DNA of 25,689 nucleotides from a virus (taxonomy: Duplodnaviria > Caudoviricetes), in the IMG/VR virus record IMGVR_UViG_3300027787_000007, positions 1 through 25,689 of that record; one strand, given 5' to 3'. The notes beneath the pieces were generated by a model, which had not been told where the DNA came from, made no database searches, and was given only the letters and a program-made list of their open reading frames with translations. The position numbers and the translations under genes are program-made. How positions within the stretch are numbered: the stretch's first letter is position 1; each line of letters starts with the position of its first letter. Shown piece by piece: positions 6,342 to 24,516 of this stretch.

Positions 6342-8378
6342 TCAGGCAGCGTCGCGCTTGAAGGTCCAGGTCTTCGGACCGGTCCGCAGGTAGTAGCCGC
6401 TGGCGGCCTCGGCACGGATCGTGACGTAGGTACCCGCCGGGATGGCCGTCTGCGCACCCGAGGAGAGGGTCGCGTCCGTGGCGTCGTTCTTGTAGACCAC
6501 GCCGGTGACCGACGGGATCGTGACGACACCGGTGCTGCTGACGAACGCCGGCGCGGTCGGCGTGACCAGCGTGTCGCTGTCGCCCGAACGCATGACGATG
6601 ACAGCCGACTTGTACTTGGTCAGAGCGCCCGACAGACGGGTCTCGATCAGGTACGTGTAGGTGTTGTAGTCGATGTTGAAGTCGTCGAAGGTGGTCAGTT
6701 CCCCGCCGCGGTTGGTGCCGATGGCGTAGTCCACCAGGTTGACGAAGATGCCAAGGACGTCGGCGTAGTCCGCGTCCTCCATCACCTCGACCTCGACGAT
6801 CTCGTTCACCATCAGCGCGTTGGCCAGCGCCGCCTTCGAGTCGTACAGCCGCCGACCCGTGGTGTCCTTGATCAGGAGCATCTCCGCCATGGTGGCGTAG
6901 GTGCAGAAGAAGTCCGGCGTACCCGTGCCGCGGTACTGGCTGCGGGCCCGGATGAGCTCCTCGATGACCTCGTTGTAGCTCGAGTTGGCGTCGCCGAGGT
7001 TGATCGTCAGCGTCGTCGCGTAGACGTGGTGCTCGTGCAGGATCGACCGGATGCCGGTGCCCTCGTTGGCGCCCTCCGGGTCCTTGATCTTGTCCGGGTC
7101 GTCCACGGCGCGGCCGTCACCGATGAGGATCGCGCGCGCGAGCTCCTCCTTGATCATGAAGCGCATCTCTTCCCAGAGCCACGCCACGACGTCGAAGTCG
7201 GTGATGTCCAGGAGCGTGTCCCGGTCCATCTTCTGCTTCTTGTAGACGGTCGAGGGCCCGGTGGTCCGCTGGCTGACCGGGAACCACTGCTCCTTCTTGA
7301 ACTCGCCGGTGATGTAGCCCTTGGCGCGAGCCTCCTCGTAGGTGAGGTCCGCCAGCATGTTCTTGATCTTGGCGAAGGGCAGGTGGCGGGTGCCGTTGAT
7401 GACCCGGTCGACCCACTCAGACCGCCGGCGGATCCACTCCGGCCGCTCGGTGAGCATCTTGGCGTCCGGGAACAGCGACTCGACGCTGTCGATCCCGTGC
7501 GAGAGGGCGAACTCCTTGACCGCGCCCATGAAGTCACCGGAGCGCTTGGCGTTCGCGAAGATGGTCTCGCAGTCACTGTGCGTCAGGGCGTACCCCTGGC
7601 CGCCGGCGGTGTCGACACCACCCTTGTTGTTCTGGTCGAAGACGTTCCGAGTACCCATCTCTCCGGGTTCCTCCTTCTGGTCGTGGATGAGGTCGCCCTC
7701 GGTCTGCTTGTCGCCCTGTTCCAGATCCGCCGGCTTGACACCGGCTGCTTCGAGAGCCTTCTGGACCATGAAGGCGGCGACGTCCTTGTCTTGCTGGGAC
7801 CAGGAGTCGTAGATCTCCCGGATCGTCGGGTCGTCGGCGGAGTGCTCGGCCTCGCCGCCGGTTTCGTCGTCGGTCTCTGATTCGTCGGCGGAATCAGGAA
7901 CCTCGATCTCGAGACCGGTGTGGATGATCGCGTCTTCGTCGGAGACGGTGACGTCAGCTGGGTCATCGCTGTGCTGGATGCGAACCCAGTCGATGACTGC
8001 GCCCTTGTTGGCACCCGCGAGAACCAGACTCACCTCGCAGATCTGACCGTGAAGAACGCTCTTAACCTTGCCGAGCATCTTCTCGACCAGCCGGTTGGCG
8101 TAGATCGACATGTTCTTGATGTCACCATGCTGAACCAACGCCTTGGCGTTCTGGCCCTGCTTGGTGCCGTTGAGGAAGCCCCAGGCGTAGACACCGTCAG
8201 GGCGAGCCTCGAGAATGGCGTGACCCAGCACATTCTCAGGGCTGTTGTGTCCGTGCTGCCAGACGAGCGGAACCGTCATCTTGTCCTGGTGCCGGAAAGC
8301 TTCAGGAGTGATAACCCGTCCATCGGAGCACTCGAGACCAGCCTTGGTGGCGTAGCCGCTGAAGTCAGCGTCTTCCAT
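6342..8378 (-). CDS. Fused prohead protease + major capsid protein (HK97 fold) with C-terminal Ig-like domain
   Basis: Likely start is the ATG at 8378 after GGAGGG, not 8582. The N-terminus has HK97-protease motifs (FSGYAT, VPLVWQHGH, MSIYA, EVSLVLAGAN), then an acidic linker, then the capsid domain (EELARAILIGDG, YLIETRLSGAL). Confidence 0.88.
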   Translation of the reverse strand: MEDADFSGYATKAGLECSDGRVITPEAFRHQDKMTVPLVWQHGHNSPENVLGHAILEARPDGVYAWGFLNGTKQGQNAKALVQHGDIKNMSIYANRLVEKMLGKVKSVLHGQICEVSLVLAGANKGAVIDWVRIQHSDDPADVTVSDEDAIIHTGLEIEVPDSADESETDDETGGEAEHSADDPTIREIYDSWSQQDKDVAAFMVQKALEAAGVKPADLEQGDKQTEGDLIHDQKEEPGEMGTRNVFDQNNKGGVDTAGGQGYALTHSDCETIFANAKRSGDFMGAVKEFALSHGIDSVESLFPDAKMLTERPEWIRRRSEWVDRVINGTRHLPFAKIKNMLADLTYEEARAKGYITGEFKKEQWFPVSQRTTGPSTVYKKQKMDRDTLLDITDFDVVAWLWEEMRFMIKEELARAILIGDGRAVDDPDKIKDPEGANEGTGIRSILHEHHVYATTLTINLGDANSSYNEVIEELIRARSQYRGTGTPDFFCTYATMAEMLLIKDTTGRRLYDSKAALANALMVNEIVEVEVMEDADYADVLGIFVNLVDYAIGTNRGGELTTFDDFNIDYNTYTYLIETRLSGALTKYKSAVIVMRSGDSDTLVTPTAPAFVSSTGVVTIPSVTGVVYKNDATDATLSSGAQTAIPAGTYVTIRAEAASGYYLRTGPKTWTFKRDAA

Positions 8379-9636
8379 TTTGACTGTCTCCCTCCAGATC
8401 TGTGGTTGGATCCGACCCCGATGAGGACGGAACTGCGCTTGGACTTGCTGATTCTGACGGCATGTTCGGGTTACGAAGTTGATCAGCCTTCGCATCCTTA
8501 ACCGGCGGGAAACCGATGACGCCGCGCATCTCATTTGCGGTTGCGACTTCGTTCCGGATGAACTTGTCTGCGATCTCCGCAATCTTCTCCATGGGAACCT
8601 GCTTGAAAGCGTTCATGAAGAAGAGAATCCACTGTCGTTGCGAGCGAGCGGTCTTCGAGAGGAGAGTCCGCCTCATGGCTTCGACAATGGCTGTTAGCAG
8701 AGGTTCAACCGTACGGTTCTTGTAATTCAACATTGCCGCTTCATCCGCGGTTCCGTTCATTACCGATTCGGTCAAACCCAGCTGGGAGTACAACATCGCC
8801 ATGAGGTACTCGACCTGCTTGAGAAGGTTGTTCTCAGCCGCTCGATTCAGCTGAGTGATCTTCTCAGTTCCGTCTGTGTAAGCAATGCCGTACTGACTGC
8901 CCTTGAGCTGGAACTCGATGTCTTTACGTCGTTGTTCTGCTTGCTGTCGGCGTGCCTCAGACTTCACGACGTACGGAAGCTGGATGATCAGGTCCAGTTT
9001 TCCAGAAGCAACAAGCTCGTCAGCGTTGTCCAACAAGTTCAACTTGTGGATCAAACGCTTCAGAGTCGAGTTCGGCTCATTCATCACGGAATAGAGAGGA
9101 TTCTCTACGATCGCGACGAATCTCTTCTCGAGAGTGACTTCTTCGCGACGGCCGGTCTGATCGTTGTAGAGATCCACGCGCACATGTCGTGGAGACCATT
9201 TCACAATCTTTCCGACACGCATTGTCTTGATGTCAAACCCCGTCGAATCCGCAGGGTTGACAGACGTGTCGACCGGAACTATCGCGATTACGCCTTGGTC
9301 GAGAATGCTCATAACCACGTCTTGGCGGAACATTCTCGCTGCCTGGTCGATATTGGCTTCGACGGTCAGACAGTTGTTCAGTCCGCTCGGAATGTCAGAT
9401 TCGTAACGACCCTGATCATCCAACCGCACATGCCGAATGTCCACTGAAGCAACATCCATTGCAATGCGGGTGTAGATCGAGGATATGATCGATCGTTCAT
9501 TACCGAGCATCATTCGAGGTCGGTCAGGACGAGTCCCGTATGAAGTTCCTGTGTCGTCGAATGGCCGATTCTCGAGATTGAAAAACGCATTCCACGCGTG
9601 CTTCAGACGGTCACCTACTTTAGCTGCCCATGCCAC
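8365..9636 (-). CDS. Portal protein
   Basis: 423 aa between TerL and the protease-capsid gene; AGGAGGTGA before the GTG start; HK97-portal-like features (IYTRIAMDVAS, TANEMRGVIG). Confidence 0.88.
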   Translation of the reverse strand: MAWAAKVGDRLKHAWNAFFNLENRPFDDTGTSYGTRPDRPRMMLGNERSIISSIYTRIAMDVASVDIRHVRLDDQGRYESDIPSGLNNCLTVEANIDQAARMFRQDVVMSILDQGVIAIVPVDTSVNPADSTGFDIKTMRVGKIVKWSPRHVRVDLYNDQTGRREEVTLEKRFVAIVENPLYSVMNEPNSTLKRLIHKLNLLDNADELVASGKLDLIIQLPYVVKSEARRQQAEQRRKDIEFQLKGSQYGIAYTDGTEKITQLNRAAENNLLKQVEYLMAMLYSQLGLTESVMNGTADEAAMLNYKNRTVEPLLTAIVEAMRRTLLSKTARSQRQWILFFMNAFKQVPMEKIAEIADKFIRNEVATANEMRGVIGFPPVKDAKADQLRNPNMPSESASPSAVPSSSGSDPTTDLEGDSQNGRR

Positions 9637-9654: not shown

Positions 9655-11400
9655 TCACTCGAACGCCTCCTTGTTCAGTTTGTACGCAACGAAGGCGTCC
9701 ATGAGAGCCGCCACGTTGTCGATCTTTTCGTCAAAACGTCGCTTGAGCAGCTTTCGGTTTCCGTTTGTGTCCTCGATGGTGATGGCATTACCCATCGCCC
9801 ACGACATCAACGTCTCGTCGAAGAGAAGCAAGCGTTGGCCGCTGAGATGTTTCAACTCACCGAGAGGAACAGATTCGGTTCGAGCACCTTGAATCACTTT
9901 CTCGATGCCGTATGAACCGTTCTCCTGTTCCCATCGAGTCACAAACTCTTTGGCGTTGTACGGGTCGAATCCTAGGCACCGGACGTCATACTCACAGGTC
10001 TCGATGTGTTTATCGAGATCTTCGTAGACCTCCATCATGTCCAGGATTGTACCTTCGAGAACGTGAAGACTTCCTTCTCGGATGAACTCCTCGTACTTTT
10101 GTCGCATTGCCCCCGGCAACTTCATCAACGTCAAGGACGTGATGTAGCTTCTTACCTTGATTCCGAACTGACCGAACGCCAATGGGAACAGGAACGTGAA
10201 AGCACAGAAGTCGTCGCCTTGCGAAAGGTCGGCACCGAGAGCACATGGCAACTTCCAATACTCTTGGTGACGATGTGGAAGGGTCTCTTCGTACGTGAAG
10301 AAGTACGTGTATCCCTCCATAGGAATTCCGAATCGCTTGGCTAGGATGTCATTCCTCGACGCGGGGGCCTTTTCGGCTCGCTCCACATCCAGATGGTACG
10401 TTTCGTACGTGACGGTCTTACCGATGTTCGGATTTGCCTTAGGCCACATCGCAGGGTCGGCAACTTCTTCCAGCTCGTCGAGCTTGTAGTGCCAGATCGA
10501 AACATGCGGCGCAAGGTAATCACCCTTCAGTATGTCAGCAAGTTCCATTTTGATTGTATCACCGGAACCATTGCGGACAGTACCTTCAGAGCTGATTGCA
10601 ACGATCAGATAGTCGTCAAGCTTTGATGCTCCCTGCTCGACAGCACCAACGACGTCTTCACGAAGATCGCCCGATAGCCATTCGTCGATCGTCGAGACCT
10701 TAGGTCGTAGTCCCTGCAATTTGTTAATGGCCATAGGACGAACTTCAAGCAACGAGCCAGTCAGAAAGTTCTCGATGCCTTTCTTCGTTGACGCCAGCTT
10801 GACCCGATTGGCTCGCGAACCCGTCGTGTTCTGCAACGAACCATCGGTAAGAAACTCGAACAGCGGTCCACGCGCGCGCGTGATGGCCGTACGAATCGGC
10901 GACATTACTTCGTCAGCTTGCTTCATCGTCGGCGCTGTTGTGATCTGGTGAGTCGTTGAAGTATCGACATTCAGGAAGTAGTTCTGAATGAGCGATGCAT
11001 ACATCGACTTGGCTGCGCCACGAGCGACGATCAAGTACTGCTTCGTGGTTAGACGTTTCTTGATTAGCTTCTTGACATAACGTCCACCATGACCGTCAGT
11101 CGAAGGTTGATAAACACTTCGCTCAACGAAGTAGTACCAACCAAAGATCTGTTCGGCCCACACCTTGAAGATGGGAAGCAGGTGAAGGTCAGATCCATCT
11201 GTCAGCGTAAGTTCGTTCTCGCAGTAGAGGATGAAACCTTGGATTGCCTGATCGTCGTAATAGATGTTCGGGTTGGCGATCAGCGCATCGATACGGTTCA
11301 TCTCCATCGCGACTTCCCGGTTTACTGGGATCTCGCCACGAAGTACCGCTTGACGAAACTCGCCGTAGTACTTGGGAGTCGCCTTGTTCGATAACACCAC
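9655..11400 (-). CDS. terL: Terminase large subunit
   Basis: 581 aa; Walker A-like VARGAAKS, Walker B STIDEW, nuclease motifs GADLSQGDD and KIDNVAALMDA, plus WPKANPNIG. Confidence 0.93.
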   Translation of the reverse strand: MVLSNKATPKYYGEFRQAVLRGEIPVNREVAMEMNRIDALIANPNIYYDDQAIQGFILYCENELTLTDGSDLHLLPIFKVWAEQIFGWYYFVERSVYQPSTDGHGGRYVKKLIKKRLTTKQYLIVARGAAKSMYASLIQNYFLNVDTSTTHQITTAPTMKQADEVMSPIRTAITRARGPLFEFLTDGSLQNTTGSRANRVKLASTKKGIENFLTGSLLEVRPMAINKLQGLRPKVSTIDEWLSGDLREDVVGAVEQGASKLDDYLIVAISSEGTVRNGSGDTIKMELADILKGDYLAPHVSIWHYKLDELEEVADPAMWPKANPNIGKTVTYETYHLDVERAEKAPASRNDILAKRFGIPMEGYTYFFTYEETLPHRHQEYWKLPCALGADLSQGDDFCAFTFLFPLAFGQFGIKVRSYITSLTLMKLPGAMRQKYEEFIREGSLHVLEGTILDMMEVYEDLDKHIETCEYDVRCLGFDPYNAKEFVTRWEQENGSYGIEKVIQGARTESVPLGELKHLSGQRLLLFDETLMSWAMGNAITIEDTNGNRKLLKRRFDEKIDNVAALMDAFVAYKLNKEAFE

Positions 11401-11414
11401 GCCAACCCTCCTTC

Positions 11415-11807
11415 CTACTTACTGGTAGCTTCTGCCACACCCTTGATCGCGCTGTAGACCTCATCGCCGAGCTTGGCGACATTGAGCAGATCACGAATTT
11501 GATTCGAACCTGCGAGGAGGTCTTGACGACGTAGTTGCTTGTATTGCTGCTCGAGCTGCATCCTTCTGATCAGCTTCTGCAGATCAGCGTTGGACAGAGA
11601 GCTCGGCTTGCTCTTCCTGGCTCGCTGCTGAAGCTTGGCTGCGTCGACCGCGTCTTTCGTGGCACGCTGGTTCTTACCACCCCGGACTTTGATCTTTCCG
11701 CCCGGCTTGGTCTTGGCAGTGACAGCGACTGGTCGACGATTGCGACGGACTCCCCACTTCATCCCCTTCACACCGAAGTGCGCGAGGACCTTATCGATTT
11801 CGTCCAT
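11415..11807 (-). CDS. Small basic protein with HxG(V/I)KGMKWGVRR N-terminal motif (DUF7211-like, possible internal virion protein)
   Basis: N-terminus reads LAHFGVKGMKWGVRR; Lys/Arg-rich; C-terminal LSNADLQKLIRRMQLEQQY helix; lies just upstream of terL. Confidence 0.65.
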   Translation of the reverse strand: MDEIDKVLAHFGVKGMKWGVRRNRRPVAVTAKTKPGGKIKVRGGKNQRATKDAVDAAKLQQRARKSKPSSLSNADLQKLIRRMQLEQQYKQLRRQDLLAGSNQIRDLLNVAKLGDEVYSAIKGVAEATSK

Positions 11808-11817
11808 GTATTCCTCG

Positions 11818-12492
11818 CTAAAGAGACTTGTAGAAGATCGGTGTTATGCCGTAATACGGCGTACCTGATGGGTCGACCTGAGGCACCACGTCACCAGCTC
11901 CGACACGGAACAATGCCGGGTAGATTCCCGTCCAACCTCCAACGATTGATGAAATATCTTCGTTGTGGCTGGGAACCCGAACCGGATCGGCGTCAGAGTA
12001 AGCTCCATGACCACCAGAAAATGATGGTGAGTGCACGTAGTGACCGGCAGCATTGTAGCGAGAGACAACATATACCTGTCCGGTGTTCACCGCGACGGGC
12101 GTGTCAAACAATGTATCTCGGTATCCGCCACCCGTAGATGCAACCGTCTTGTTGGCCAAACTAGCTGTTGATCCAGTGTCTGGAATGTGTCCGTTTGTAG
12201 TCTCAGCATCCCACAACCGCATCACCCAGTTGCCCGCACCTGCAGCACCGTCATACCAGCGAACACCGGTGATGAAACCCGAGTTATGCAGGATGAACTG
12301 GTGTCCGATGACGATGTTCGGCGTTCCGTCAGTGTAGGCAGTTGGAGTGATCAGTAGTGCATCGTTGACGTAATACGGACCATCTGCACTAGCCGGCTTC
12401 TCCCAGACGATCTGTCCATCGACCATCATCATGTCGACTTCTTGATTGGCTACTCTGGCCTCGATTGCTGTGGTGAAGTCATACTGAGGCAT
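11818..12492 (-). CDS. DUF4082-like beta-sandwich protein (minor structural, possibly carbohydrate-binding)
   Basis: IGHQF...GFITGVRWY...LW...LFDTPVAVNTGQVYVVS...GHY follows the DUF4082 pattern as I recall it. Confidence 0.6.
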   Translation of the reverse strand: MPQYDFTTAIEARVANQEVDMMMVDGQIVWEKPASADGPYYVNDALLITPTAYTDGTPNIVIGHQFILHNSGFITGVRWYDGAAGAGNWVMRLWDAETTNGHIPDTGSTASLANKTVASTGGGYRDTLFDTPVAVNTGQVYVVSRYNAAGHYVHSPSFSGGHGAYSDADPVRVPSHNEDISSIVGGWTGIYPALFRVGAGDVVPQVDPSGTPYYGITPIFYKSL

Positions 12493-13055
12493 CAGGCCGG
12501 CAATCGGAAGTAGATATGAAGCGGATTCGAGTCAGCGGCGGGTGGCCACGAACCATTCGCAACCAAAGTTACTGTGACTGACTCTCCGTCCGCACCATCT
12601 GCGCCGTCGGCACCGTCAGCTCCAGGCGGGCCTTGAATGCCCTGGGACCCCGTAGCTCCAGTGTCACCCGTGTCTCCCTTAGGGCCCTGAATACCTTGAG
12701 CCCCGGTTGCACCTGTGGCTCCTGTTGCGCCGGTAGCACCCGTTGGCCCAGCAGGACCGACGAGAGACTCGAGCCACTCCGCCTCGGTGCCCACAAAACC
12801 ATTATCAACAGCAACCTCATAAGCTGAATCACCGGGAACTCCTTCGAGCACGGCACCCTCGATAGCCGCGGTAATCAACGCTTCGATTTGAGGTTGGTCG
12901 ATGTAGTAGGGAAGGACAACCCAGTAGGTATTGCCATCCCCGATTTTGAACTTCTTCGTGTCCGTTTCGAAGCCGATCTCGCCAGAACGCAAGAGCGGAT
13001 TCCTGGAGGTCCAGCTAGCAGACGTACCACGCCGAACCTGAATGATGTCCGCCAT
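12492..13055 (-). CDS. Collagen-like fibre protein with Mtd/hyaluronidase-type N-terminal domain
   Basis: N-terminal [37 protein letters not shown]; [22 protein letters not shown] motif; run of about 20 Gly-X-Y triplets. Confidence 0.8.
12583..12760 (-). repeat. Gly-X-Y collagen-coding repeat
   Basis: Encodes [60 protein letters not shown]; boundaries approximate. Confidence 0.85.
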
Positions 13056-13063
13056 GAAGTCTC

Positions 13064-13468
13064 CTAAGGATCTCCGCCGTCGACGATAATGTCGTCATCG
13101 AGAACGACATCTGGATCAGGATCGACCCATTCGGTTTCTTCCCGGTACGCGTTGATGCGCCATTCGAGTTCCTTGATCTGCTGCTCCATCGCCGTCTGGT
13201 GATAGCTTGTGGAGGGAGGATCGAAGGCCATTCGAACACGCATCTGAACGTACTGCTTGACGTTGTTCTTGCGCTTGTCGGTTCCAAGGAAGGTGTCCCA
13301 CGTGGGCACCTTGTCCTCGATTGCGAACCCGTCAGCCGGGCCTACACCCAACTGATTCAAAGTTGCAAAGACCGAGTTCGTGAAGAGGATGATGTCTTCG
13401 TCGAACGAAGTATCGGCCTCAGGAAGACCTAGGGTCTTCTTCAAACTCGTTAAGATGCTGGTGATCAC
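13064..13468 (-). CDS. Head-to-tail adaptor (gp6-like connector)
   Basis: GGAGGTG precedes the GTG at 13468. Helical protein, [11 protein letters not shown]...FDEDII...[16 protein letters not shown]...ELEWR. Confidence 0.65.
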
Positions 13469-13488
13469 GCGGGACACCTCCCTTCAGA

Positions 13489-14217
13489 TCAGAACCGACC
13501 CTCGTTGAGCCGACGCTGCAGCGCCTTGACGGTCACCGGATCCATTCGCTGGGTCACCGGGACGCCGAGGTACACCTGCAGGGCGCCGATCGTCTTCGGG
13601 CCGAGTTCTCCGTCGGCAACGAGCCGGTGATTGACACGATCCGCCAGGTACCGCTGCACCCAGTAGATCAGTTCGGACTTCGGTGTCGAGATGACGCCAT
13701 CCACGTACGGGCTGCCGATGATGGCCTGCCACTTGGAGATGGTCTTCGGACCGAGTTCTCCGTCGACGTCGAGACGCTCGTTCTTCCAGTCGACCTGCGG
13801 ACGGCCCTGCTCCGGCGGAACGTACTCGCCAGCGAACCATTCCGAGTGAACGTGGTCCTCGTGGTTGGCGGTCGGGTCACCCCGGTCGGCCATCTGCCGC
13901 ACGACACCCGGAGAAACCACCGTCGAGGTGATCTTGTGATTCCAGATGACGTGACGCAGCTTGTGTCGACCGCGCCGCTCCCAGATCGCATTCCGAACGA
14001 AGTCGCCGGCCTCCTTGGTGTGAACCATGAAGTCGATGACCGGATGCTGCTCGGTGTGGTTGAGCTTGTGGTCCATGTTCGGACCGTCGCCCCACAGGAA
14101 CCAGACGTCGTGCCCGTTGGCCCAGGCGAGGTTGCAGATCTCGTAGGCGATGTCCCAACCGTTGGCTGGGACTGCGCCGAGCTCGCTAGAGACGTAGCCC
14201 CACTTGTCCTCAGCCAT
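13489..14217 (-). CDS. Endolysin: Zn-peptidase (M15/LAS-like) domain plus two peptidoglycan-binding repeats
   Basis: ATG at 14217 after GAGGA. Catalytic-like DH...IDFM...VIWN...NHEDHVH motif. C-terminal repeats LDVDGELGPKT..WQ and LVADGELGPKT..LQ resemble PG_binding_1. Confidence 0.8.
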   Translation of the reverse strand: MAEDKWGYVSSELGAVPANGWDIAYEICNLAWANGHDVWFLWGDGPNMDHKLNHTEQHPVIDFMVHTKEAGDFVRNAIWERRGRHKLRHVIWNHKITSTVVSPGVVRQMADRGDPTANHEDHVHSEWFAGEYVPPEQGRPQVDWKNERLDVDGELGPKTISKWQAIIGSPYVDGVISTPKSELIYWVQRYLADRVNHRLVADGELGPKTIGALQVYLGVPVTQRMDPVTVKALQRRLNEGRF

Positions 14218-14605
14218 TGGCATCCTCGTCCTTCTCGTCCGCGTCGAAGTCGGCGTCGTCGACGGTCTTGTCGCGAGCTTCCTCGTCGTAGGCCGCGTTG
14301 GAGTCGTGGCGCTCCGGGGTCTGGACGTAGACGTCCGGGTCCTGCGTGCTGACGTCGGGCTTGTTGTCGCCCGGCTGGACGAACTGCGGAGCCTCGGCCG
14401 AGACCGGCGCAGAAGCACGGGTGTCCTGGCTCGGCTGAGCGTCGCTGTCGTTGGCGTCGACGTTGTCGTTGTCTGCGACGAGGACGGGCTCGTCCGCGTT
14501 CTTCTCCACGGCGTTCTGGTGGGCGGCCAGTGCCTTTTCCCGGGCCTGCGTCAGGTCCTCGGTGTTCTGGGCGTCGGCGTGGCCGCTCTCGACTCGCTCT
14601 TCCAT
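14210..14605 (-). CDS. Highly acidic low-complexity hypothetical protein
   Basis: AAGGAGG before the ATG at 14605; 131 aa rich in D/E/A/N; overlaps the lysin start. Confidence 0.7.
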   Translation of the reverse strand: MEERVESGHADAQNTEDLTQAREKALAAHQNAVEKNADEPVLVADNDNVDANDSDAQPSQDTRASAPVSAEAPQFVQPGDNKPDVSTQDPDVYVQTPERHDSNAAYDEEARDKTVDDADFDADEKDEDANG

Positions 14606-14621
14606 CGTTCCTCCTTCTCGG

Positions 14622-15032
14622 TTACCACAACTTGGTGTCGCCAGCCACACGAGCAACGGGCAATCGGGGAAGTTGCTGCGCGGTACCGTAATGGATGGCA
14701 TTGTGGGTCTTGTGTGTGACCGTGATCAAGTACTCCGGGTCGAGAATGCTTGGATCTCCACTCGAAATATCGTCAACCGTCATCGGATTCATGTGATGGA
14801 TGTAAAGACCCTTGTGGATCTCAAATCCAAGGATGCCTAAATCGCAGCCCTCATCGCGAATGATGACGTGGCGACGGATTTGACGCCACTCTTTTGAACG
14901 GTAGAACATCTGGTTCATGTATCGGTCGAACCCAAACGTGGAATCACCGACTTGACCGTTCAACTGGAGGTATTCGAACCTAGACTCAAGCGTATCGAAC
15001 CGTCGAAGCTCGGAATACGACCTAATTCTCAT
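14622..15032 (-). CDS. HNH endonuclease (packaging-associated, HK97 gp74-like)
   Basis: W..IRRHVIIRDEGC...IHHMNP...LITVTHKTHNAIH; located at the start of the packaging module. Confidence 0.8.
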   Translation of the reverse strand: MRIRSYSELRRFDTLESRFEYLQLNGQVGDSTFGFDRYMNQMFYRSKEWRQIRRHVIIRDEGCDLGILGFEIHKGLYIHHMNPMTVDDISSGDPSILDPEYLITVTHKTHNAIHYGTAQQLPRLPVARVAGDTKLW

Positions 15033-15375
15033 AGTCGTCCTCTGAGGGTTGAGCCTCTTGGCCTTGATAGAGCCGCATGACACGAATTGCTTCGCTGTAG
15101 AGCTGCTCTACTCTCTTCTCGGATTCGATTGCATCGGCCTTGATCCTAGTTAACCTCAGTTCCTCTTCTAAACGCTCTTGCTCGAGTCGTTCTCGTGAGG
15201 AACCAAGCTTGAGATAGTGACTAATGACCTGAGCAGATGCCGTACCATTCAGCAGCTGCTTCTCAGCCAGGTCAGTAGCGTAGGAAATGAGCTGAGCCTC
15301 CCGAGCATCGGGAGTTGTGGCGGGTCTTGGCCGTTTGGGCTCGGAATCCGACTCTTTGGGTCGTCGAATGACCAC
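15022..15375 (-). CDS. Putative terminase small subunit
   Basis: 117 aa, helical with a coiled coil (RERLEQERLEEEL); next to the HNH gene and the putative genome end. Assigned from position and size. Confidence 0.45.
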   Translation of the reverse strand: MVIRRPKESDSEPKRPRPATTPDAREAQLISYATDLAEKQLLNGTASAQVISHYLKLGSSRERLEQERLEEELRLTRIKADAIESEKRVEQLYSEAIRVMRLYQGQEAQPSEDDYEN

Positions 15376-15409
15376 GTCTCAACTCCCTTCTGCTAGATGG
15401 GGTCGAAAC

Positions 15410-15697
15410 TCAGGGAGCCAGCTGCCTGGCGGTGCGCATCTTGCCCAGCAGCGAGTTCACGGTCGTCCGCAGATTGACGACATCGGTCCGCAGCGCGTTG
15501 AACTCGGCCTCGGTGGGCGATTCACCGCCCGTGATGGCAGCCTGAGTCATCGCCGGGGCGTCAGTCTGGGCCGCGGCCTGCTTGGGGATGACCAAACCGG
15601 CTCCGGAAGCGTCGAAAAGCTCGAGCTGGAGCGTCAGTTCATTGGTTCTGCGCGTCCCGCCATCCACCAGGACGGCTTGCTGCGTCGGTTGTGCCAC
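15410..15697 (-). CDS. Small structural protein (head fibre/decoration-like)
   Basis: GAGAGGG before the GTG at 15697. The KQAAAQTD...PTEAEFNAL...NSLLGKMR pattern resembles phage head-fibre proteins. Confidence 0.45.
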   Translation of the reverse strand: MAQPTQQAVLVDGGTRRTNELTLQLELFDASGAGLVIPKQAAAQTDAPAMTQAAITGGESPTEAEFNALRTDVVNLRTTVNSLLGKMRTARQLAP

Positions 15698-15714
15698 TTT
15701 TGTCCCTCTCTGTC

Positions 15715-15845
15715 CTAGTTTGCCCCGACTTTCCGGGGGCAAAAAACTTACTCGATTTTGTCCCCCGGGGCATTTTTGAGGACGGAGGCGATGCGGACGG
15801 GGGGTCTGATTTGCGGACCCCCTCCCCCCTACGTCTTCATCTCTC
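15715..15845. other. Putative genome terminus / cos packaging region
   Basis: Non-coding gap with inverted repeats TTTGCCCC/GGGGCAAA (15719-15743), CCCCGGGG (~15763-15770) and GGGGGTC/GACCCCC (15800-15822); lies just upstream of the packaging genes. Confidence 0.55.
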
Positions 15846-15850
15846 CCACT

Positions 15851-16099
15851 CTATGCAGCCACTGAGACAGGAGCTGCGACTTTTCTGTAGATTCCGAGAA
15901 CATTGTTCTCAACAATCCACGAAATCGCATTCTCTATCTCAACACTTTGCACATCATCAGGCAACTCATCAGACACGTTGGCAACACGTGCCAAGAAAGA
16001 CGGAGTGTTGTACCCTGCTTGTCTGTCGAATGCATACCACTCATCCCAATGTGTGAAAGGATTCCATGGATTGTCGACAGTAGTTAACATGTGTTCCAT
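15851..16099 (-). CDS. Small acidic/aromatic protein directly downstream of the RNA polymerase-like gene
   Basis: AAGGAG before the ATG at 16099; 82 aa, LTTVDNPWNPFTHWDEWYAFD. Confidence 0.75.
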   Translation of the reverse strand: MEHMLTTVDNPWNPFTHWDEWYAFDRQAGYNTPSFLARVANVSDELPDDVQSVEIENAISWIVENNVLGIYRKVAAPVSVAA

Positions 16100-16110
16100 T
16101 GATTCTCCTT

Positions 16111-18729
16111 TCACTCACTAAGACCAACCTTGAGTGTGGTAAGCGAAACACCAAGAGCATCAGCAATCTCAGCCTGGGTGTATCCGGAGTTCATCATTGC
16201 CTTGGCCCTAAGCTTCTTGATGGGAGTCATAGAAACCGAAGACCTAGGTGTGGCTAGTTCCTTAACACGATCCAAGTCTGCATTGTTGAGGATCTGGTTG
16301 AGACGGTTGGGACTGATAGCACCTGCCTGAATAGCGGCCCATTCAGAATCGGTGATGTCAATCCTCTGCTTACGGGCCCCCACTCTAACCCGGGCCTCCG
16401 CTAGAGCCTGGGCTTTGAGGCGCTTAAGTTCAGCACTGTCCATGTCTGGGCGCCCTTGGGTCTTGAGGCGGACGATTTCGCCTGCCATTACCTGGGCACG
16501 TCTTTCTAATGGACTGTTTCTAAGGGCTACCGAAAGCTTCGATTGTAGGGAGGCCACTTCATTTGAGTACGCCTTCTTTGCAGATGGAGAATAGGGGATA
16601 CCCTTTGTGTTGACAGCAGCAAGCCTTGCCTGGTTGGCCAAGGACTTGAGTGAGTTCGAGTGATCTGCATACACCTTCTCTATGGGCGTGCCCGAAGAGA
16701 GGGAGCGTGCATCACTAGCTTCTGCCAACTTCTTTACTTTGATCTCTTTCCTTACCAACTGCCCTTGCCTGTTGGTAAAGGTTTCCCCTGTCGGTTCGAA
16801 TACCTTCCTACCAGTAGCCCGGTCTACAGGACCACCCTTTGCTGCAGACCTAGGTTTCCTATCAGGCACTCGTGTTTCAGAGCCGGCCCTTGAAATGAGG
16901 GTTGATGCCCCACCTCTCGGATTACCCTGATACTTCTCCATTAACTGCGAGATGCCGTTGTCTCGAGCAGATCCCTTGTAATCCAGGTTGTGTTTCTCTG
17001 CATCGATTACAACCATTGAATGCCGAACTGCGCGCGCTAGCTCGGCCGTGTTGGCACCACGAATTGTCATGTCCGTGATTAGGTTGGAAACGATACCCAT
17101 CTGGATCTGTTTGGTGCGTGGACTAATCGGCTTCATTCCAGGATAGGCAGGGTATGCCTTGATGGGATCGAAGTCTTTTAGTCCTTCTAGTGGCGAACCG
17201 GTCTTGATCTTCCTGTCGTTGTTGCGAATGACAAGAACATGATCGCCATCGAAGTCTGCACCCGAGAGACGTTGCGCTACCTTGTGATTGATGCCTACTG
17301 CATCTCTTGCTCGACCGATACTGGTCTGTGCTTCCTTGTTCCGGTTGTTCACTGTCAGTTCTGGGATCTCGAAGATTCCACCATGTGGATGGCGAATCAA
17401 TACAACCCTCTCACCATTACGGTAATTGGGTGCATAGATCTCATTGTCTTTCAGCGAATTGATTGGAAGGATCACATGGTTCGCAGTACCAGGAAGAGCA
17501 GCCGCTTTGAGATGTACAGCCGCAGCATCTGCATCATCAGCGAAGGATTCCAACAGACGCTTACGAACAGAAGGATTGGTGAGCTTGGAGATCTGTTCGA
17601 ACTCCTGACGCTTCCGTTCAGCTGCGACATCCAGTTGGGTCTTGGCGAGTGATGGACTCTGCTTCGACAACATCTGAGAAGACAGAGCTCGAGACCACTG
17701 TTCCCAGTTTCCTTCTTCGTTGATGATGTTCATGACGCCATGTTGTCGACTGATGGAAGCACCGAACGGATTGTCCGGATCGTCTTTCAGTTTCTTCAAG
17801 GCATCGAGTTTGTTGCCTGTGTTTTTCTTGTTCACATTGACGACAAGGTCCACGCCAGGAGGCATGTCGTCTTTGTACATTGCCATGCCCTTGATGTAGT
17901 GCGTTCCATCAACCGCAATACGAACCTGGGCATAGCTGGATTTACCGAGCGAGATGTCTTCTTTGCCGCGTCGAACATAGATGACACCGTCAGCTGCAGC
18001 ACCGCCCTCATCAGCATAACGAATTGCAACACGCTTCGAGCTGATTGAGGTGGGGGGCTTCAAACCGAGGAAAGTGCGCCCACCATCTTCGGAGTGTTCG
18101 GTAACAGTCCTGATGTTGGCACGATTGGCATAAGTCTCGGAGTACTTCGTGCCTGGAGCTACCAACACAGTCTGAGTTGTGAATTGACCGGTACCGAGTT
18201 GTGGAACCTTGACGTATTGAACGAGGTAGCCTTCTTCTTTCAGAAGGGCTACGGCCGCATTCAACTTCGTCCGACTGATCCCCATGTGGTGTTCAACACC
18301 GCTACCGATATCGAGGTACTTCTTGTCTGCGACTTGGTCACGCAGCATGTTCGACGTTGCCGTCAGAACATTGGCACGATCAGCGACACCCGGAGCTAGC
18401 AGAGCTCGAACAGAAGACTCATTGATCTTCATTCGTTGTCCGATGGCAACATTCGAATAGCCCTTGTCCTTGAGCCTCTGGGCCATCGCGATGTCTGCTT
18501 GCTTCTGCTGGTTGTTCGCAATCGTCTTTGCTGCGCGGAGCTGGGTAGTAGTGATGTTGAAGCTACGTGCGATTTCTACATCACTCATACCTTCTCGACG
18601 CAAGTTATCGACCGTCATCAAGAAAGTACGGTTACGACCCTCCTGCGTCTTACCAGATCCCCAGGGATAGCGACCTGATCTACGCAGAATGCCGTAGTGA
18701 GCGAGATGATTATCTTTGAGAATGATCAA
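16111..18729 (-). CDS. Single-subunit two-barrel (double-psi) RNA polymerase, YonO/QDE-1-like, with N- and C-terminal HTH domains
   Basis: Catalytic LSGADFDGD (DFDGD at 17242-17256). Upstream motifs ADG and QVR...IKG, and RHPH; downstream MGIVSN and HSMVVIDAEK. HTHs: GMSDVEIARSFNIT, GYSNVAIGQRMKINESSVR and GYTQAEIADALGVSLTTLK. GGAGGTG precedes the TTG start. Confidence 0.82.
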   Translation of the reverse strand: MIILKDNHLAHYGILRRSGRYPWGSGKTQEGRNRTFLMTVDNLRREGMSDVEIARSFNITTTQLRAAKTIANNQQKQADIAMAQRLKDKGYSNVAIGQRMKINESSVRALLAPGVADRANVLTATSNMLRDQVADKKYLDIGSGVEHHMGISRTKLNAAVALLKEEGYLVQYVKVPQLGTGQFTTQTVLVAPGTKYSETYANRANIRTVTEHSEDGGRTFLGLKPPTSISSKRVAIRYADEGGAAADGVIYVRRGKEDISLGKSSYAQVRIAVDGTHYIKGMAMYKDDMPPGVDLVVNVNKKNTGNKLDALKKLKDDPDNPFGASISRQHGVMNIINEEGNWEQWSRALSSQMLSKQSPSLAKTQLDVAAERKRQEFEQISKLTNPSVRKRLLESFADDADAAAVHLKAAALPGTANHVILPINSLKDNEIYAPNYRNGERVVLIRHPHGGIFEIPELTVNNRNKEAQTSIGRARDAVGINHKVAQRLSGADFDGDHVLVIRNNDRKIKTGSPLEGLKDFDPIKAYPAYPGMKPISPRTKQIQMGIVSNLITDMTIRGANTAELARAVRHSMVVIDAEKHNLDYKGSARDNGISQLMEKYQGNPRGGASTLISRAGSETRVPDRKPRSAAKGGPVDRATGRKVFEPTGETFTNRQGQLVRKEIKVKKLAEASDARSLSSGTPIEKVYADHSNSLKSLANQARLAAVNTKGIPYSPSAKKAYSNEVASLQSKLSVALRNSPLERRAQVMAGEIVRLKTQGRPDMDSAELKRLKAQALAEARVRVGARKQRIDITDSEWAAIQAGAISPNRLNQILNNADLDRVKELATPRSSVSMTPIKKLRAKAMMNSGYTQAEIADALGVSLTTLKVGLSE

Positions 18730-19289
18730 AACGGCACCTCCTGTCGCAGATCGTTCAGACGCTTGTCAAACGTCCGAATTTTGTCGATGATGTGAAAGAT
18801 GTCATCCGGATCGGGAATAAGCACCTTCACGTCATCATTCTGATAAATCCGCAGTTCTGCTCTGATCTCATTCGGCTTGAATTTGTACTCCAAACAGAAC
18901 AAGGCCATGTAGACCATGAGCTGAGTGAAGGACGCCTCGTTGATGCCGGTTTTGAGATCGTGGACTCGAAGAGTGTTCTTACGGAAGCCGATCGCATCGG
19001 CAGTACCGTAACAGTTCATCGAGTAGAACAAAATCTGTTCGGGTGTCAAACCATAGCTGATGGCATCATTGACGTACTGGTTCAACGTCGCCGAAGTGGC
19101 CGGCAGCTTTACCCGCAACTTGATCATTCGTTGCGCAAGGTCATGGAGCTCAGTTCCCCGGCGAGCAGCCATTTGCGCATGGAACACACGATCAAGTTTG
19201 TCTTCTGTGTAGTTAACCCAAGAGTGGTTACTCGGGCTAAGAAACGCGTGCGCCGCGGGAAGCACGGCGGAATGTCTGTTGAAGTCCAC
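18726..19289 (-). CDS. PD-(D/E)XK exonuclease, Cas4/RecB-like
   Basis: Likely GTG start at 19289. Motifs HAFLSPS, GTELH, EQ.L, GTADAI, VHDLKTG and QLMVY. Confidence 0.8.
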   Translation of the reverse strand: MDFNRHSAVLPAAHAFLSPSNHSWVNYTEDKLDRVFHAQMAARRGTELHDLAQRMIKLRVKLPATSATLNQYVNDAISYGLTPEQILFYSMNCYGTADAIGFRKNTLRVHDLKTGINEASFTQLMVYMALFCLEYKFKPNEIRAELRIYQNDDVKVLIPDPDDIFHIIDKIRTFDKRLNDLRQEVPF

Positions 19290-19560
19290 GGAAGACGTCC
19301 TCTTCGTTCTCAGGATAGATAAAGGCTGCGAACGACATTGCGTCGAAAAGCTCGACGTAGTAGCGCTGATTGGGTCGCTCAGGAGCATTTTCGTGTGCCT
19401 TTATCTCGAGCATGGCCCACGTGTTCCCGTAAAAGACAGTTCGATCCGGAATTCCTTGTACGAGTTGCGGATCGTTCTTTACGACAACACAGCCTGGGAA
19501 ATCCTCGTGGAGCCTGTTAACGACGTGTCTCTCGTATCTGCTTTCACGCATTTGCTCCAC
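19237..19560 (-). CDS. VRR-NUC domain nuclease (Holliday junction resolvase-like)
   Basis: E..Y...GIPD.......LEIK.......PNQ pattern of VRR-NUC; 107 aa. Confidence 0.8.
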   Translation of the reverse strand: MEQMRESRYERHVVNRLHEDFPGCVVVKNDPQLVQGIPDRTVFYGNTWAMLEIKAHENAPERPNQRYYVELFDAMSFAAFIYPENEEDVFRGLQQTFRRASRGARVS

Positions 19561-19589
19561 CTCCCAAACAAAAAGGGCTTGCTCTTACT

Positions 19590-19625
19590 CCTTCTATTAT
19601 ATCCTGCGATCCATACGCTACTTAA
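19590..19625 (-). promoter_or_regulatory. Putative promoter (TATAAT -10) for the VRR-Nuc/exonuclease/RNAP operon
   Basis: Perfect TATAAT on the minus strand (19596-19601) in the intergenic gap; no convincing -35. Confidence 0.5.
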
Positions 19626-20139
19626 TATGGCGTTTTATCAAGATGTGGTGATCAGTCGGGTACACCGTATAATTCCAGTGTCCGTGAAGAATGTTCGCTG
19701 CGCTAAGCACCACAGCTCGTTCAAGCAACCCATAGGTTTTCGCCAACTCCCAGCTATCCGGAAACTCCTCTCCCGTCTCGTGGATAATCAATGGTTCGTA
19801 CATACGATTTTGATAAGGCTGATTTTGGAACTGTTTGTGATACTCGATTGCGAAAGGTCGTGGACGCCAGGCGAGGTTGTTTGCCTGGAGATTGCCACGG
19901 TCGCCGTCGAGATGGATGACTGTATTGGAACGACGGTCTGGGGGGTCTACGAACGCCTTAGCGACGAGTACGGCAACAGACCTACAATAATCCACACCAC
20001 CTCGATGGAGGTTAATGTTGCGGATACCCTGGTGGTTGACTCGAATGGGCAAGAATCTTTTACTCAGATGCGAGTAGATCCGTCCATCGTCATGTACTTC
20101 GTAATCGAGGAATTCCTCGATTGCAGCGAACTCGGTCAT
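19618..20139 (-). CDS. NUMOD4-HNH homing-endonuclease-like protein
   Basis: N-terminal DYEVHDDGRIYS (NUMOD4), VAVLVAKAFV, and VIHLDGDRGNLQANNLAW (HNH_3-like). Confidence 0.75.
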   Translation of the reverse strand: MTEFAAIEEFLDYEVHDDGRIYSHLSKRFLPIRVNHQGIRNINLHRGGVDYCRSVAVLVAKAFVDPPDRRSNTVIHLDGDRGNLQANNLAWRPRPFAIEYHKQFQNQPYQNRMYEPLIIHETGEEFPDSWELAKTYGLLERAVVLSAANILHGHWNYTVYPTDHHILIKRHIK

Positions 20140-20159
20140 CAGGCATACATCTCCTCGGA

Positions 20160-20430
20160 AAAGCTCATGTCAAAAACCAAAAATTTTGGCCAAAAAGTTT
20201 TCTATAAAAACGCACATAGTATCAGTGCTGTTGATATTAAGTGAGTTTTATTGAGAAAGTTTTTAGCTTCAGATTTGACAGATTTGACAGATGATCTTGT
20301 AATTTCCACAAAATCCTGTCCTATTCTGTCCGAGTTTCGCCCCTTTCGCCACAACTATGTCCCTATTTACCCCCTTCTGCCCAAGTATGCCCATTATTTC
20401 ATCCTACTATGTCCTATTTCATCCACCCAG
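20160..20430. repeat. AT-rich tract with short direct repeats; candidate replication origin
   Basis: Markedly AT-rich. CAGATTTGA x2.5 (20270-20292), TGTCC(C)TATT x3 (20317, 20358, 20410) and TATTTCATCC x2 (20395, 20415); immediately downstream of the helicase. Confidence 0.55.
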
Positions 20431-21593
20431 GCCCGATTTGCTATGAATCGGCTTTCGTTGAAGTTCCGTTTTTCTGCCAAGGATTTTTTTATTCCAAAAT
20501 CCAAAATCGTTTTTGACAGAAGGCGGTAGTAGAAAAGTCTGTTATAGGGTGAATTCAACCGATCGATCCTACCATGCCCTTGTTCCCATAGTTTGTACGA
20601 ATACGGTTGCGAGTAGAAAACCATCGCATTGGTATCCGTACAGTTCCATCCCTCCCCTCCAGCGGCGTACTGAACCAAGTACAACCATCTCTCACAAGTC
20701 GGTAGAGGCTCGTGCTTGTGACCATTCCATTCAGAAATCGTCACTGTCTTCGAAAGCGATCTCAAGATCTCTAGTTCGAAGTCGAAGTTGTAGAAGACAA
20801 TCAACCGCGGGTGTATAGACATCAGTGACTGTACAACCCGCAACCGAGACAAGTCGGAATTCACAACCCGCCTCATCACAAGGAATAGTTCCGCCACGGT
20901 CTTCAACGGTCTGTTCTCGTACACATGCCATCGATCTACCATCACTCTCTTCAAGAGCTCAGCGTCGTAGTCGCACCAGACGTCCTCCTCCACTCGCACA
21001 GTGTGGCGTTGGTAGGGCATCTCTACGAGGATCTCATTACGCAGCCGGACCAGTTTCCCTACTGCTGTATATCTTTGAACTTTAGGGAATTTTGTGTACG
21101 GGTTATACACAACGTGGTCTCGCTTGAACTCAGAACGATTTCGATAGAATCCGTTGGCGATGAACACCGGAATGTAATCCATCCAAGTATCGCCTGGAGT
21201 GGCGGAGAGAAGGATCCACCGGTTTCGTCGAGTGATAGCCAGGAATTTGGTAACCCACTGACCACTACCGACAATTCGTTGCTCGTCGAAGATGAAGAAC
21301 GCCCCACTAACGGAGGCATACTTTCCAATGTTATTCCACGAATCGACCGTGAGAACACCCGCGACAGTCGCCCCAGGAACTCCTCCCACGGCTCGCTTGG
21401 CAAACTCCCCCTCCCAATCGCGAGAGTCTCTCTTCTTGGCTGTCGTGATGACGTAGACATCCTTTGGTGCTTCTTTCTCCATATAGTAGGCAACGGCTGT
21501 CAGGGATTTCCCCGTCCCGACACCGCCCCACAAGATCTTGCCGTTCGCTAGTTTCTTGACTGCTTCAGCTTGGTGGGGGTGAAGTTCGATCAT
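20394..21593 (-). CDS. Superfamily 2 DNA helicase
   Basis: Walker A GGVGTGKS, motif II FDEQ, motif III LSATP, motif V GGEGWN, motif [10 protein letters not shown]. Confidence 0.9.
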
Positions 21594-21994
21594 TTATCCT
21601 CGCACCCACAAGTTGGCGTATGCCTATCTCCGTGCTTACCATCCGGACCCAATGGACGATGTTTGTCGAGTTGGTCGATCAGCCTTTGCAAGCGACGGAT
21701 ATGGCTATGACTCCAGTTCCGACCTGACTGGCCAATCTCCGTCTGAGCGATACAGAACAATTCCCGGGTCATCTTGACGTTGTCGACCTGCAACGTCGGA
21801 ACAACCTCTGGAAATGCCCCGATTTCATTTCCGATCGCGTTGAACAGATCCTTCAAGTTCTTCCGATCCAACGTCGCAGCACCACTACCGTGCATGTGAT
21901 TGACGATGAGCTCGTAGGTGTTCGGATCTGTCTTCCGTAGAATCGCCTCCTCTTGTGTCTGATGGTCGTACACATCCCACAAGTCTTCGTCCAT
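21590..21994 (-). CDS. Hypothetical protein
   Basis: AGGAGGTG before the ATG at 21994; C-terminal [20 protein letters not shown] is a possible metal-binding tail. Confidence 0.65.
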
Positions 21995-21995
21995 T

Positions 21996-22310
21996 TCACA
22001 CCTCCTTGCCATACAGAGACCTCGAGCCGTACTGGGGGGAACCGAATCCGACCGTAACCTTCCGCCATCCCGATCCATCAAGGTCGTCGAGATAGAACGT
22101 GTTGCCTCCGTACGTAACCCGCACCGCCGGGCGTACCTGCCCTACAAATAGACGGGCCCAGTACTCGGGATGAATGCCCGGATCAGACACCACCAAATTG
22201 ACTTTCTGTGCATCACAAGGTTCCCCGTTCCAATATGTGCAAATTACTCCCGGGGGATGATTCAGGAACGAAGCCGGGAGGGGGGCACGAAGCTTCCTAC
22301 GGTTGCTCAT
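21996..22310 (-). CDS. Hypothetical protein
   Basis: AAGGAGAAGGTG before the ATG at 22310; 104 aa; packs tightly with its neighbours. Confidence 0.65.
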   Translation of the reverse strand: MSNRRKLRAPLPASFLNHPPGVICTYWNGEPCDAQKVNLVVSDPGIHPEYWARLFVGQVRPAVRVTYGGNTFYLDDLDGSGWRKVTVGFGSPQYGSRSLYGKEV

Positions 22311-22327
22311 CACCTTCTCCTTTAGCC

Positions 22328-22365
22328 AAAAACGAAACACCATGTTATTCACACGATGCCTCGTT
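22328..22365 (-). terminator. Rho-independent terminator
   Basis: Minus-strand 14-bp stem AACGAGGCAUCGUG/CAUGGUGUUUCGUU (with G-U pairs) running into a U tract, just after the stop at 22373. Confidence 0.7.
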
Positions 22366-22372
22366 CGAGGGT

Positions 22373-22609
22373 TTATTCTTCTTCCATTCTCTTCTTCAAC
22401 TTCTCGATGGCGTTCTTCATCACGAAGTAGTCCATCAACACGGCGTCCCAGCCTGCCTTGAATCCATCCGCGAACCAGCGGCGCGTCTCGACGTAGAGCT
22501 CGTCCTTGTGGGACTGCTCCATCGACTTGACGACACGACGGTGTCGGATGACCCAGACGAGGTTGGTCAGCAAAGCTGTAACTACTCCGGCGAGGATTGC
22601 AGCGAGCAT
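22373..22609 (-). CDS. Small membrane protein (single N-terminal TM helix)
   Basis: AAAGGA before the ATG at 22609; MLAAILAGVVTALLTNLVWVI followed by RHRR. Confidence 0.7.
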   Translation of the reverse strand: MLAAILAGVVTALLTNLVWVIRHRRVVKSMEQSHKDELYVETRRWFADGFKAGWDAVLMDYFVMKNAIEKLKKRMEEE

Positions 22610-22624
22610 GGCTGTTCCTTTCAG

Positions 22625-22665
22625 AGATGGGGTCTCATTATAAGCCATGTTTCTCCCGCGATAAT
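22625..22665 (-). promoter_or_regulatory. Putative promoter (TATAAT -10) of the membrane-protein cassette
   Basis: Minus strand reads CGCGGGAGAAACATGGCTTATAATGAGACCCCATCT; TATAAT at 22637-22642. Confidence 0.55.
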
Positions 22666-22669
22666 ATGA

Positions 22670-22698
22670 GTAGAGGGGGCCCGATCAACCCCCTCTAC
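22670..22698 (-). terminator. Strong hairpin / probable terminator downstream of the tRNA region
   Basis: Perfect 10-bp inverted repeat GTAGAGGGGG / CCCCCTCTAC, followed on the minus strand by UCAUAUUAU. Confidence 0.55.
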
Positions 22699-22810
22699 CC
22701 TATTCTCCCTCTCAGAAAGTCCGCCATTGAATGTAGGGTCTTTAGGCACTCAACCCCATGTCGCACCTCCTCTGATTAATCCGCGATTCCTGCAGCGTGC
22801 ACCCACTGCG

Positions 22811-22885
22811 CGCTGGTGGCAGGACTCGAACCTGCACACTTCGTGTCCACCCCACACGAGGCTCTACCAGTTGAGCTACACCAGC
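22811..22885 (-). tRNA. tRNA-like gene with Thr-like body (central GGU) and non-canonical anticodon arm
   Basis: Acceptor GCUGGUG/CACCAGC, D arm GCUC-AACUGGUA-GAGC, T arm GCAGG-UUCGAGU-CCUGC. Anticodon arm is UCGUGU-GGGGUGG-ACACGA. No encoded CCA. Confidence 0.75.
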
Positions 22886-22945
22886 AAGGTGAGTCGAGCC
22901 CCCGGAAATCCCGTACCAAGAGCCCGACCCACGCCTTGGATGCTG

Positions 22946-23636: not shown

Positions 23637-23645
23637 TGTGCTCCT

Positions 23646-24094: not shown

Positions 24095-24141
24095 TCTTTT
24101 GCTCCTTAATATTAGGGCCAGAGACTGATCGCCTCCAGGAA

Positions 24142-24170: not shown

Positions 24171-24182
24171 AACCTGCAAGAA

Positions 24183-24476: not shown

Positions 24477-24516
24477 CGAGTCCCCTACTTGTTTGTTGTG
24501 ATACCTGTTGAGAAGG

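Follow-up and report, generated by a model that had tools for sequence, protein, structure and literature searches.

The closest described systems are those of phages T4 and phiKZ. In T4 (capsid targeting sequence (CTS) on IPI–III and Alt, with gp21), a short peptide on unrelated, basic and poorly conserved proteins has a three-residue protease pattern in common with disposable scaffold proteins, and the 10-residue tag is removed by a cut after Glu (PMC9026906; statements from papers cited here and below refer to the parts of their text that were available). In phiKZ/SPN3US, head ejection proteins and a virion RNA polymerase are found, and protease-processed cargo contains redundant sites (PMC9026906, PMC5694885). 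The proteases of both T4 (L/I-X-E) and phiKZ (S/A-X-E) act on short, redundant sites in disposable segments (PMC9026906). Here we analysed a 25.7-kb siphophage genome fragment (IMG/VR record IMGVR_UViG_3300027787_000007, positions 1–25,689; hereafter, the window), with genes on the minus strand, which encodes a 130-amino-acid protein beside the terminase large subunit gene (terL) and an 872-amino-acid predicted RNA polymerase, both with a conserved motif near the N terminus. The motif of the 130-amino-acid protein matches the 25-position Pfam family DUF7211 (PF23847), for which Pfam gives no function and no description, nor one of the motif, was found in the literature searched (most subscription journals lay outside its scope). 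Sequence comparisons suggest that DUF7211 is probably a head-loading tag, that its cargo would be trimmed by a head protease predicted to cut at His and that the polymerase is likely among the cargo.

The 130-amino-acid protein (11415..11807, minus strand) is basic (isoelectric point (pI) 10.8), is encoded directly upstream of terL and carries the full tag at residues L8–R22 (11742..11786, minus strand; His10 at 11778–11780). The DUF7211 match covers residues 1–24 (48.1 bits versus a cut-off of 27, E = 7e-13), and the protein is a core member of the tagged family, with a second conserved motif (L-S-N-x-E-L...R82...E86). A first-pass annotation had described a leader common to this protein and the polymerase, and the N termini that it quoted are exact minus-strand translations (130-amino-acid protein, L8-A9-H10 at 11786 and W18-G19 ending at 11751; polymerase, L9-A10-H11 at 18705 and W23-G24 ending at 18658) on proteins that are, as it held, otherwise unrelated (best BLASTP E = 0.25 over 9 residues). 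In a six-frame scan of the window, a regular expression fitted to both motifs returned exactly these two matches (mean of 0.02 in 500 shuffles), and a looser expression returned the same two (1.39 expected), both patterns being post hoc. No further tags were found in the 25.7-kb window by six-frame regular expression or tag profile. Chance resemblance was rejected as an explanation of the tag by the DUF7211 score, the regular-expression counts and the breadth of the profile.

The tag is portable, as had been proposed: the 93 cargo segments taken from 94 tags sorted into 46 BLAST clusters, the largest of which (26 members) includes the protein of the window. As with the T4 CTS, a short N-terminal peptide is thus common to unrelated proteins, with internal copies as well. 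A 32-position tag profile matched 51,549 representatives (clusters at 50% identity) at E ≤ 0.001; the tag was present in 5 of 5 further virus records versus 0 of 14 control genomes, and DUF7211 was matched at E ≤ 0.01 by 69 of 69 tagged proteins from relatives, some below the curated cut-off. In scans of 69 and 52 proteins (the 52 being part of the 150 best-scoring representatives listed), most cargo had no Pfam family, and the families recognized in the rest included GNAT, 2H phosphoesterase, Ntox50 and papain-fold domains. Tagged cargo was basic (pI > 9 in 23/23 versus 68/343 other open reading frames (ORFs)). Toxin-like domains were seen on tagged proteins at three loci (L050:8297–8629, L053:7478–8500 and L035:2004–2834; Ntox50 above cut-off, papain-fold and PBECR3 weak). 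The tagged genes mostly keep to the head module, with 272 of 283 tags within −8/+3 kb of the portal gene, and a search by the tag alone led to loci that carry the terL, portal or capsid gene of the lineage in 75 of 80 cases (those with at least 9 kb downstream, among 144 loci retrieved). The tagged genes near terL and portal number one each in HotFries, 1706 and oengus, two in BitterVaud1, four in Tanis, six in Niktson and eight in Pepy6 (counts for Tanis, Niktson, Pepy6, oengus and BitterVaud1 cover 50 kb of each record). At loci L155, L164, L185, L188 and L194, tagged genes lie away from the head module; they follow tail or lysis genes, adjoin recombinase-like ORFs or are placed between the helicase and polymerase genes, which suggests that they move as cassettes.

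A candidate for the processing enzyme is encoded in the same module. The 678-amino-acid precursor (6342..8378, minus strand; profile match) combines S78 prohead protease, scaffold and major capsid protein, a fusion noted in PMC5513430; the protease profile matched with 27.7 bits (cut-off, 21), and H42, H44 and S91 are invariant in 16/16 sequences. Residues 1–294 contain ten hydrophobic-x-His triplets, including six in the scaffold segment (7497..7979, minus strand; His136, 153, 179, 232, 267 and 294), and His294 abuts the predicted start of the mature capsid protein. Across 16 non-redundant precursors (of 36), triplet density was 3.5 per 100 amino acids before the capsid start versus 0.23 after it; elsewhere, it was 0.3–0.6 in terL, helicase, tail tube and portal and 0.7 in the polymerase. 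A hydrophobic residue stands at −2 of 102 of 112 scaffold His residues (background, 35%), the residue after the His at these sites is S/A/G in 72/102, and a site falls on the scaffold/capsid junction in 11 of 16 precursors. The pattern was chosen on this first set and then fixed for replication in 51 further non-redundant precursors, all with three or more sites, in which 338 of 359 scaffold His residues fit (3.8 versus 0.34 per 100 amino acids in mature capsid). Sites also occur in the protease domain and near the N terminus of the portal protein, and were not enriched in tape-measure proteins (2–5 triplets in 1,530–1,996 amino acids). A protease-site pattern that matches the tag is thus present in the capsid precursor: the P3–P1 pattern of the tag, L-x-H, is that of the scaffold sites, as the T4 CTS has its site in common with scaffold substrates of the prohead protease, although P1′ differs. 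We infer that the head protease cuts after His; the pattern fills the scaffold and recurs at polyprotein joints, both of which speak for a head protease with His specificity and for cargo loading of the T4 kind. In the portal protein (8365..9636, minus strand), the N-terminal hydrophobic-x-His (window 9598–9606, His13) is kept in 13 of 17 non-redundant portals, and trimming of the portal N terminus is possible from its sequence.

Such joints occur in tagged polyproteins. Among the 150 best-scoring representatives, which are mostly multi-copy by selection, 139 carry 2–5 tags with a median spacing of 212 amino acids. A second site lies within 30 amino acids upstream of 216 of 289 internal tags, mostly followed by Ser, versus 33 (maximum, 46) at random positions; after dereplication, the count was 134 of 175, and Cys was enriched as much as His in that stretch. 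Tanis gp12 pairs a 2H phosphoesterase with a tagged core domain, and the linker between the two contains eight sites. This arrangement reads as a precursor that would be loaded through its internal tag and then cut, such that a free N terminus of the tag would not be needed. A 2H phosphoesterase upstream of an internal tag, joined through a site-rich linker, was noted at L025:5478–7043 and L027:10681–12276; in a PDB sequence search, the 2H cargo gave a weak match to 2′-5′ RNA ligase (E = 0.39). In other phages, 2H enzymes break down cyclic-nucleotide immune signals, and the 2H cargo may be a virion-delivered form of counter-defence.

Under the head-loading reading, the tag would attach to the prohead during assembly and thereby recruit whichever protein carries it, the predicted RNA polymerase included, while the S78 protease, present as a fusion on every capsid subunit, would cut hydrophobic-x-His|(S/A/G) and digest both itself and the scaffold. 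The first half of the tag is site-like, but an aromatic residue follows the His, as do 12 more conserved residues; the tag would dock on the precursor, with the protease domain as the likeliest place and the tag as its tightly bound or slowly cleaved substrate, and may be a slow or uncut pseudo-substrate. Polyproteins would be loaded whole and then cut into single domains, and the cargo would leave with the DNA, with the polymerase serving early transcription and the variable enzymes serving host takeover or counter-defence. The tag, as expected of a docking motif, is conserved yet apparently unstructured in the models. It lies outside the modelled fold of both proteins: in the 130-amino-acid protein (predicted template modelling score (pTM) 0.38; alignment of 27 rows), the predicted local distance difference test score (pLDDT) of the tag was about 52–54, and in the polymerase (77 rows), residues 1–22 and 24–26 had pLDDT < 50, although the motif is kept in 118 of 120 homologues. 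An Atlas model (pTM 0.36) had no structural match at a query-normalized TM ≥ 0.5. A motif that forms an integral part of the fold is supported by neither model.

The first-pass annotation had gone further and proposed a T4-like leader that is possibly cleaved. A leader that is cut off was rejected, because the conserved residues are found downstream of the His at which a cut is likely; copies of the tag also occur inside polyproteins and the polymerase has only half of it. The T4 CTS has L/I-X-E at its end and is taken off in full; the pattern here ends in His and the conserved part comes after it. The tag shares with the T4 CTS its short length, its unrelated, basic and poorly conserved carriers and a three-residue protease pattern also found in disposable scaffold; unlike T4, this system has internal tag copies in polyproteins, a protease fused to every capsid subunit and a 43–60-kb siphophage as its setting. 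By analogy, the tag would work like the CTS yet is not a member of that class: the proposed likeness is functional, and a sequence relation is not expected. A virion polymerase and protease-processed cargo with redundant sites would be common to phiKZ/SPN3US, which differ in having a multi-subunit RNA polymerase, a Glu-specific protease and jumbo myophage virions, and for which no shared tag is described in the available parts of PMC9026906 and PMC5694885.

The polymerase (16111..18729, minus strand) belongs to phrog_4291, the family of phage 1706 orf75. It is predicted to be a single-chain two-barrel enzyme with helix-turn-helix (HTH) regions at both termini, and starts with a TTG codon behind AGGAGG that overlaps the stop codon of an exonuclease gene. 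As in two-barrel (YonO/RdRP-like) polymerases with a DxDGD catalytic loop, D-F-D-G-D is present (residues 492–496; 17242..17256, minus strand) and is invariant in 77/77 aligned sequences. The model (mean pLDDT 79) matched QDE-1 (E = 6.5e-9), Thermus phage polymerases (E = 3e-7 to 3e-4) and also RDR2 in Foldseek, with TM of only about 0.3; a PDB sequence search gave HTH matches only. The model thus favours a two-barrel fold, with RNA synthesis itself predicted. The phage 1706 family is listed among YonO-like proteins (PMC2919709), and the 872-amino-acid protein is a member of it; in the available text of papers on this family, polymerase activity is predicted and neither the N-terminal motif nor packaging is mentioned (PMC2919709; bioRxiv 10.1101/842583).

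The N-terminal motif of the polymerase (L9–G26; 18652..18705, minus strand) consists of the half tag L-x-H-Y-G and the family-specific S-G-R-Y-P-W-G-S-G. When a profile of 40 tags was compared with one of 16 polymerase N termini, 14 columns aligned (probability 93%, E = 3e-7), ending G-[IV]-x, and the common half reads acidic-L-x-H-[YF]-G-[IV]. The claim of a shared leader therefore stood for the first half and fell as a description of one motif: the polymerase had no DUF7211 match at E ≤ 0.01 (among the best 5 of 9 families; top 29.3 bits, HTH), and W-G stands at +8 from the His in the tag and at +12 in the polymerase.

Virion association, predicted for both carriers, is supported for their orthologues by annotation in phage 1706. 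The motif occurs in only 2 of its 76 ORFs, orf7 (two copies) and orf75 (the polymerase), and both are annotated as 'structural protein' in the depositors' record, a label that is not head- or tail-specific. Given the 15 ORFs labelled structural, portal, capsid or tail, the chance of both labels is P = 0.037 (15 of 76), or 0.005 outside the portal–tail block. Garneau and colleagues reportedly identified 15 phage 1706 proteins by liquid chromatography with tandem mass spectrometry in 2008, a number that agrees with the 15 labelled ORFs, and the two labels reportedly derive from these data. No virion proteome of the lineage was found in the literature searched, including the available parts of PMC5694885, PMC13313380, PMC3900856, PMC4155818 and PMC5883640.

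Several observations weigh against head loading as the function of the tag. The phage 1706 evidence amounts to two GenBank labels (n = 2), and orf62 and orf71 have the 'structural' label without a tag. Y/H/W/F follows the tag His in 89 of 94 cases, whereas F/Y/H does so at only 4 of 102 scaffold sites; because an aromatic P1′ is rare at scaffold sites, the tag may not be cut. The overlap between polymerase and tag is limited to 14 columns, and the tag profile scored at most 10.5 bits on polymerase N termini (that of the window, <8 bits). Seven more hydrophobic-x-His triplets lie inside the polymerase, so a cut would have to be defined by more than the triplet. The low pLDDT may stem from the shallow alignments, tagged genes lie away from head genes in 5 of the 80 loci, and the sequences are related, so that the counts do not represent independent events.

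The polymerase-specific points bear most directly on a reading that overlaps with head loading, in which the small proteins do use such a system but the polymerase shares only the protease site, and S-G-R-Y-P-W-G serves another purpose, such as activation, autoinhibition or the binding of a partner. The alignment limited to the first half, the absence of a DUF7211 match and the stronger conservation of the second half (Y21–G26 invariant in 77/77 polymerases; L9, H11 and G13 at ≥90%) are in line with it, but the common half includes the tag-type aromatic-Gly-[IV] after the His, which is rare at scaffold sites, and orf75 of phage 1706 is labelled structural though far from the morphogenesis block; we regard this reading as a minority possibility, albeit a serious one. 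The downstream conservation could instead mean that the tag has its role once it is cut: an acidic mask would be lost by cleavage at L-x-His, and the newly exposed basic, aromatic N terminus would anchor the cargo on packaged DNA or pilot it into the portal or tail for ejection, with loading achieved otherwise. The mean net charge (−2.5 before internal tags, +3.3 after) is consistent with such a switch, as is the tagging of every polyprotein domain when one tag would suffice for loading (138 of 150 best matches with 2–4 copies). Multiple copies could, however, arise simply when neighbouring tagged genes fuse, the tag has an atypical P1′ residue, and the 2H phosphoesterases upstream of the sole tag in Tanis gp12 (with its 8-site linker) and Pepy6 gp13 would end up untagged, which makes a post-cleavage role unlikely.

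The remaining explanations set aside either the virion or the cleavage. YonO itself, a distant relative of the polymerase, is a late-gene enzyme that transcribes SPbeta late genes (PMC5467207), and the gene for the polymerase sits upstream of those for morphogenesis and shares their strand; with tag and cargo both basic, the tag could be a non-virion docking or nucleic-acid-binding motif, the polymerase a YonO-like late-gene enzyme and the tagged proteins assembly or transcription helpers. We consider this very unlikely, as both tagged phage 1706 ORFs are labelled structural, the enzyme cargo is of many unrelated kinds, and protease-type sites at polyprotein joints are sensible only inside a prohead. 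More improbable still, the hydrophobic-x-His repeats may be uncut docking or metal-binding units of the scaffold, which the tag mimics to co-assemble. Our literature search found no His-specific prohead protease, the protease profile had no credible relative in the PDB, and 5 of 16 precursors lack a site exactly at the capsid junction, all compatible with uncut repeats; however, the small P1′ residue, three-residue pattern and redundant disposable copies mirror the T4 and phiKZ sites (PMC9026906), and the protease domain and the N-terminal region of the portal contain sites too.

Beyond the head-loading function that we favour, a wider picture can be offered only tentatively: a modular injection system of a very widespread siphophage lineage, in which the capsid-fused His protease doubles as cargo receptor, a pseudo-substrate tag of 15 residues loads the compact polymerase and polymorphic effectors (>50,000 clusters), and polyproteins with several effectors are cut to single enzymes in the head before ejection. 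If the head-loading reading is right, DUF7211 would gain a function, tens of thousands of phage proteins would become candidate injected effectors, among which enzymes of counter-defence and host takeover could be sought, and a His-cutting head protease would join the Glu-cutting ones of T4 and phiKZ. In a small phage with a long tail, the 1706-family polymerase (activity predicted) would then be an enzyme of the virion, and the tag could serve to load proteins into phages that infect Gram-positive bacteria, the use to which the CTS is put in T4. Cultured members on Streptomyces, Arthrobacter, Gordonia and Lactococcus, all harmless hosts, make each step testable.

The window belongs to the AM/AU/AW/BI/CC/DJ/EL-1706 siphophages (genomes of 43–60 kb), a supercluster in bioRxiv 10.1101/842583, where the 'HTH protein' of these phages is predicted to be a polymerase. 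Out of 50,697 phage records, 250 matched the polymerase (249 over at least 80% of its length), 254 the capsid precursor and 235 the 130-amino-acid protein, mostly from the same groups for all three (phages of Arthrobacter, Gordonia, Streptomyces, Curtobacterium, Rhodococcus, Microbacterium and Lactococcus). A promoter scan of 11000–25689 gave 5 sites (7.2 expected), no promoter-like family was present among the 20 largest direct-repeat families listed, and PADLOC gave 0 matches on 8 proteins. terL (9655..11400, minus strand; profile match) is a context gene without a tag. Ahead of terL, DUF4082 and Mtd_N/collagen fibre-like genes (11818–13055) separate the connector gene from the tagged gene. 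Two paralogous major-tail-like genes (3468–4256 and 4826–5698, both phrog_2645) flank a gene for a 181-amino-acid protein; the paired layout is also found in HotFries, Tanis, Niktson and Pepy6, and a single gene is listed in 1706 and oengus. The gap at 15740–15850, between a gene for an 87-amino-acid protein (after the polymerase) and genes for a 110-amino-acid and a terS-like protein, corresponds to the genome ends in cultured relatives; it contains a short palindrome near 15759–15772 and is a possible packaging site.

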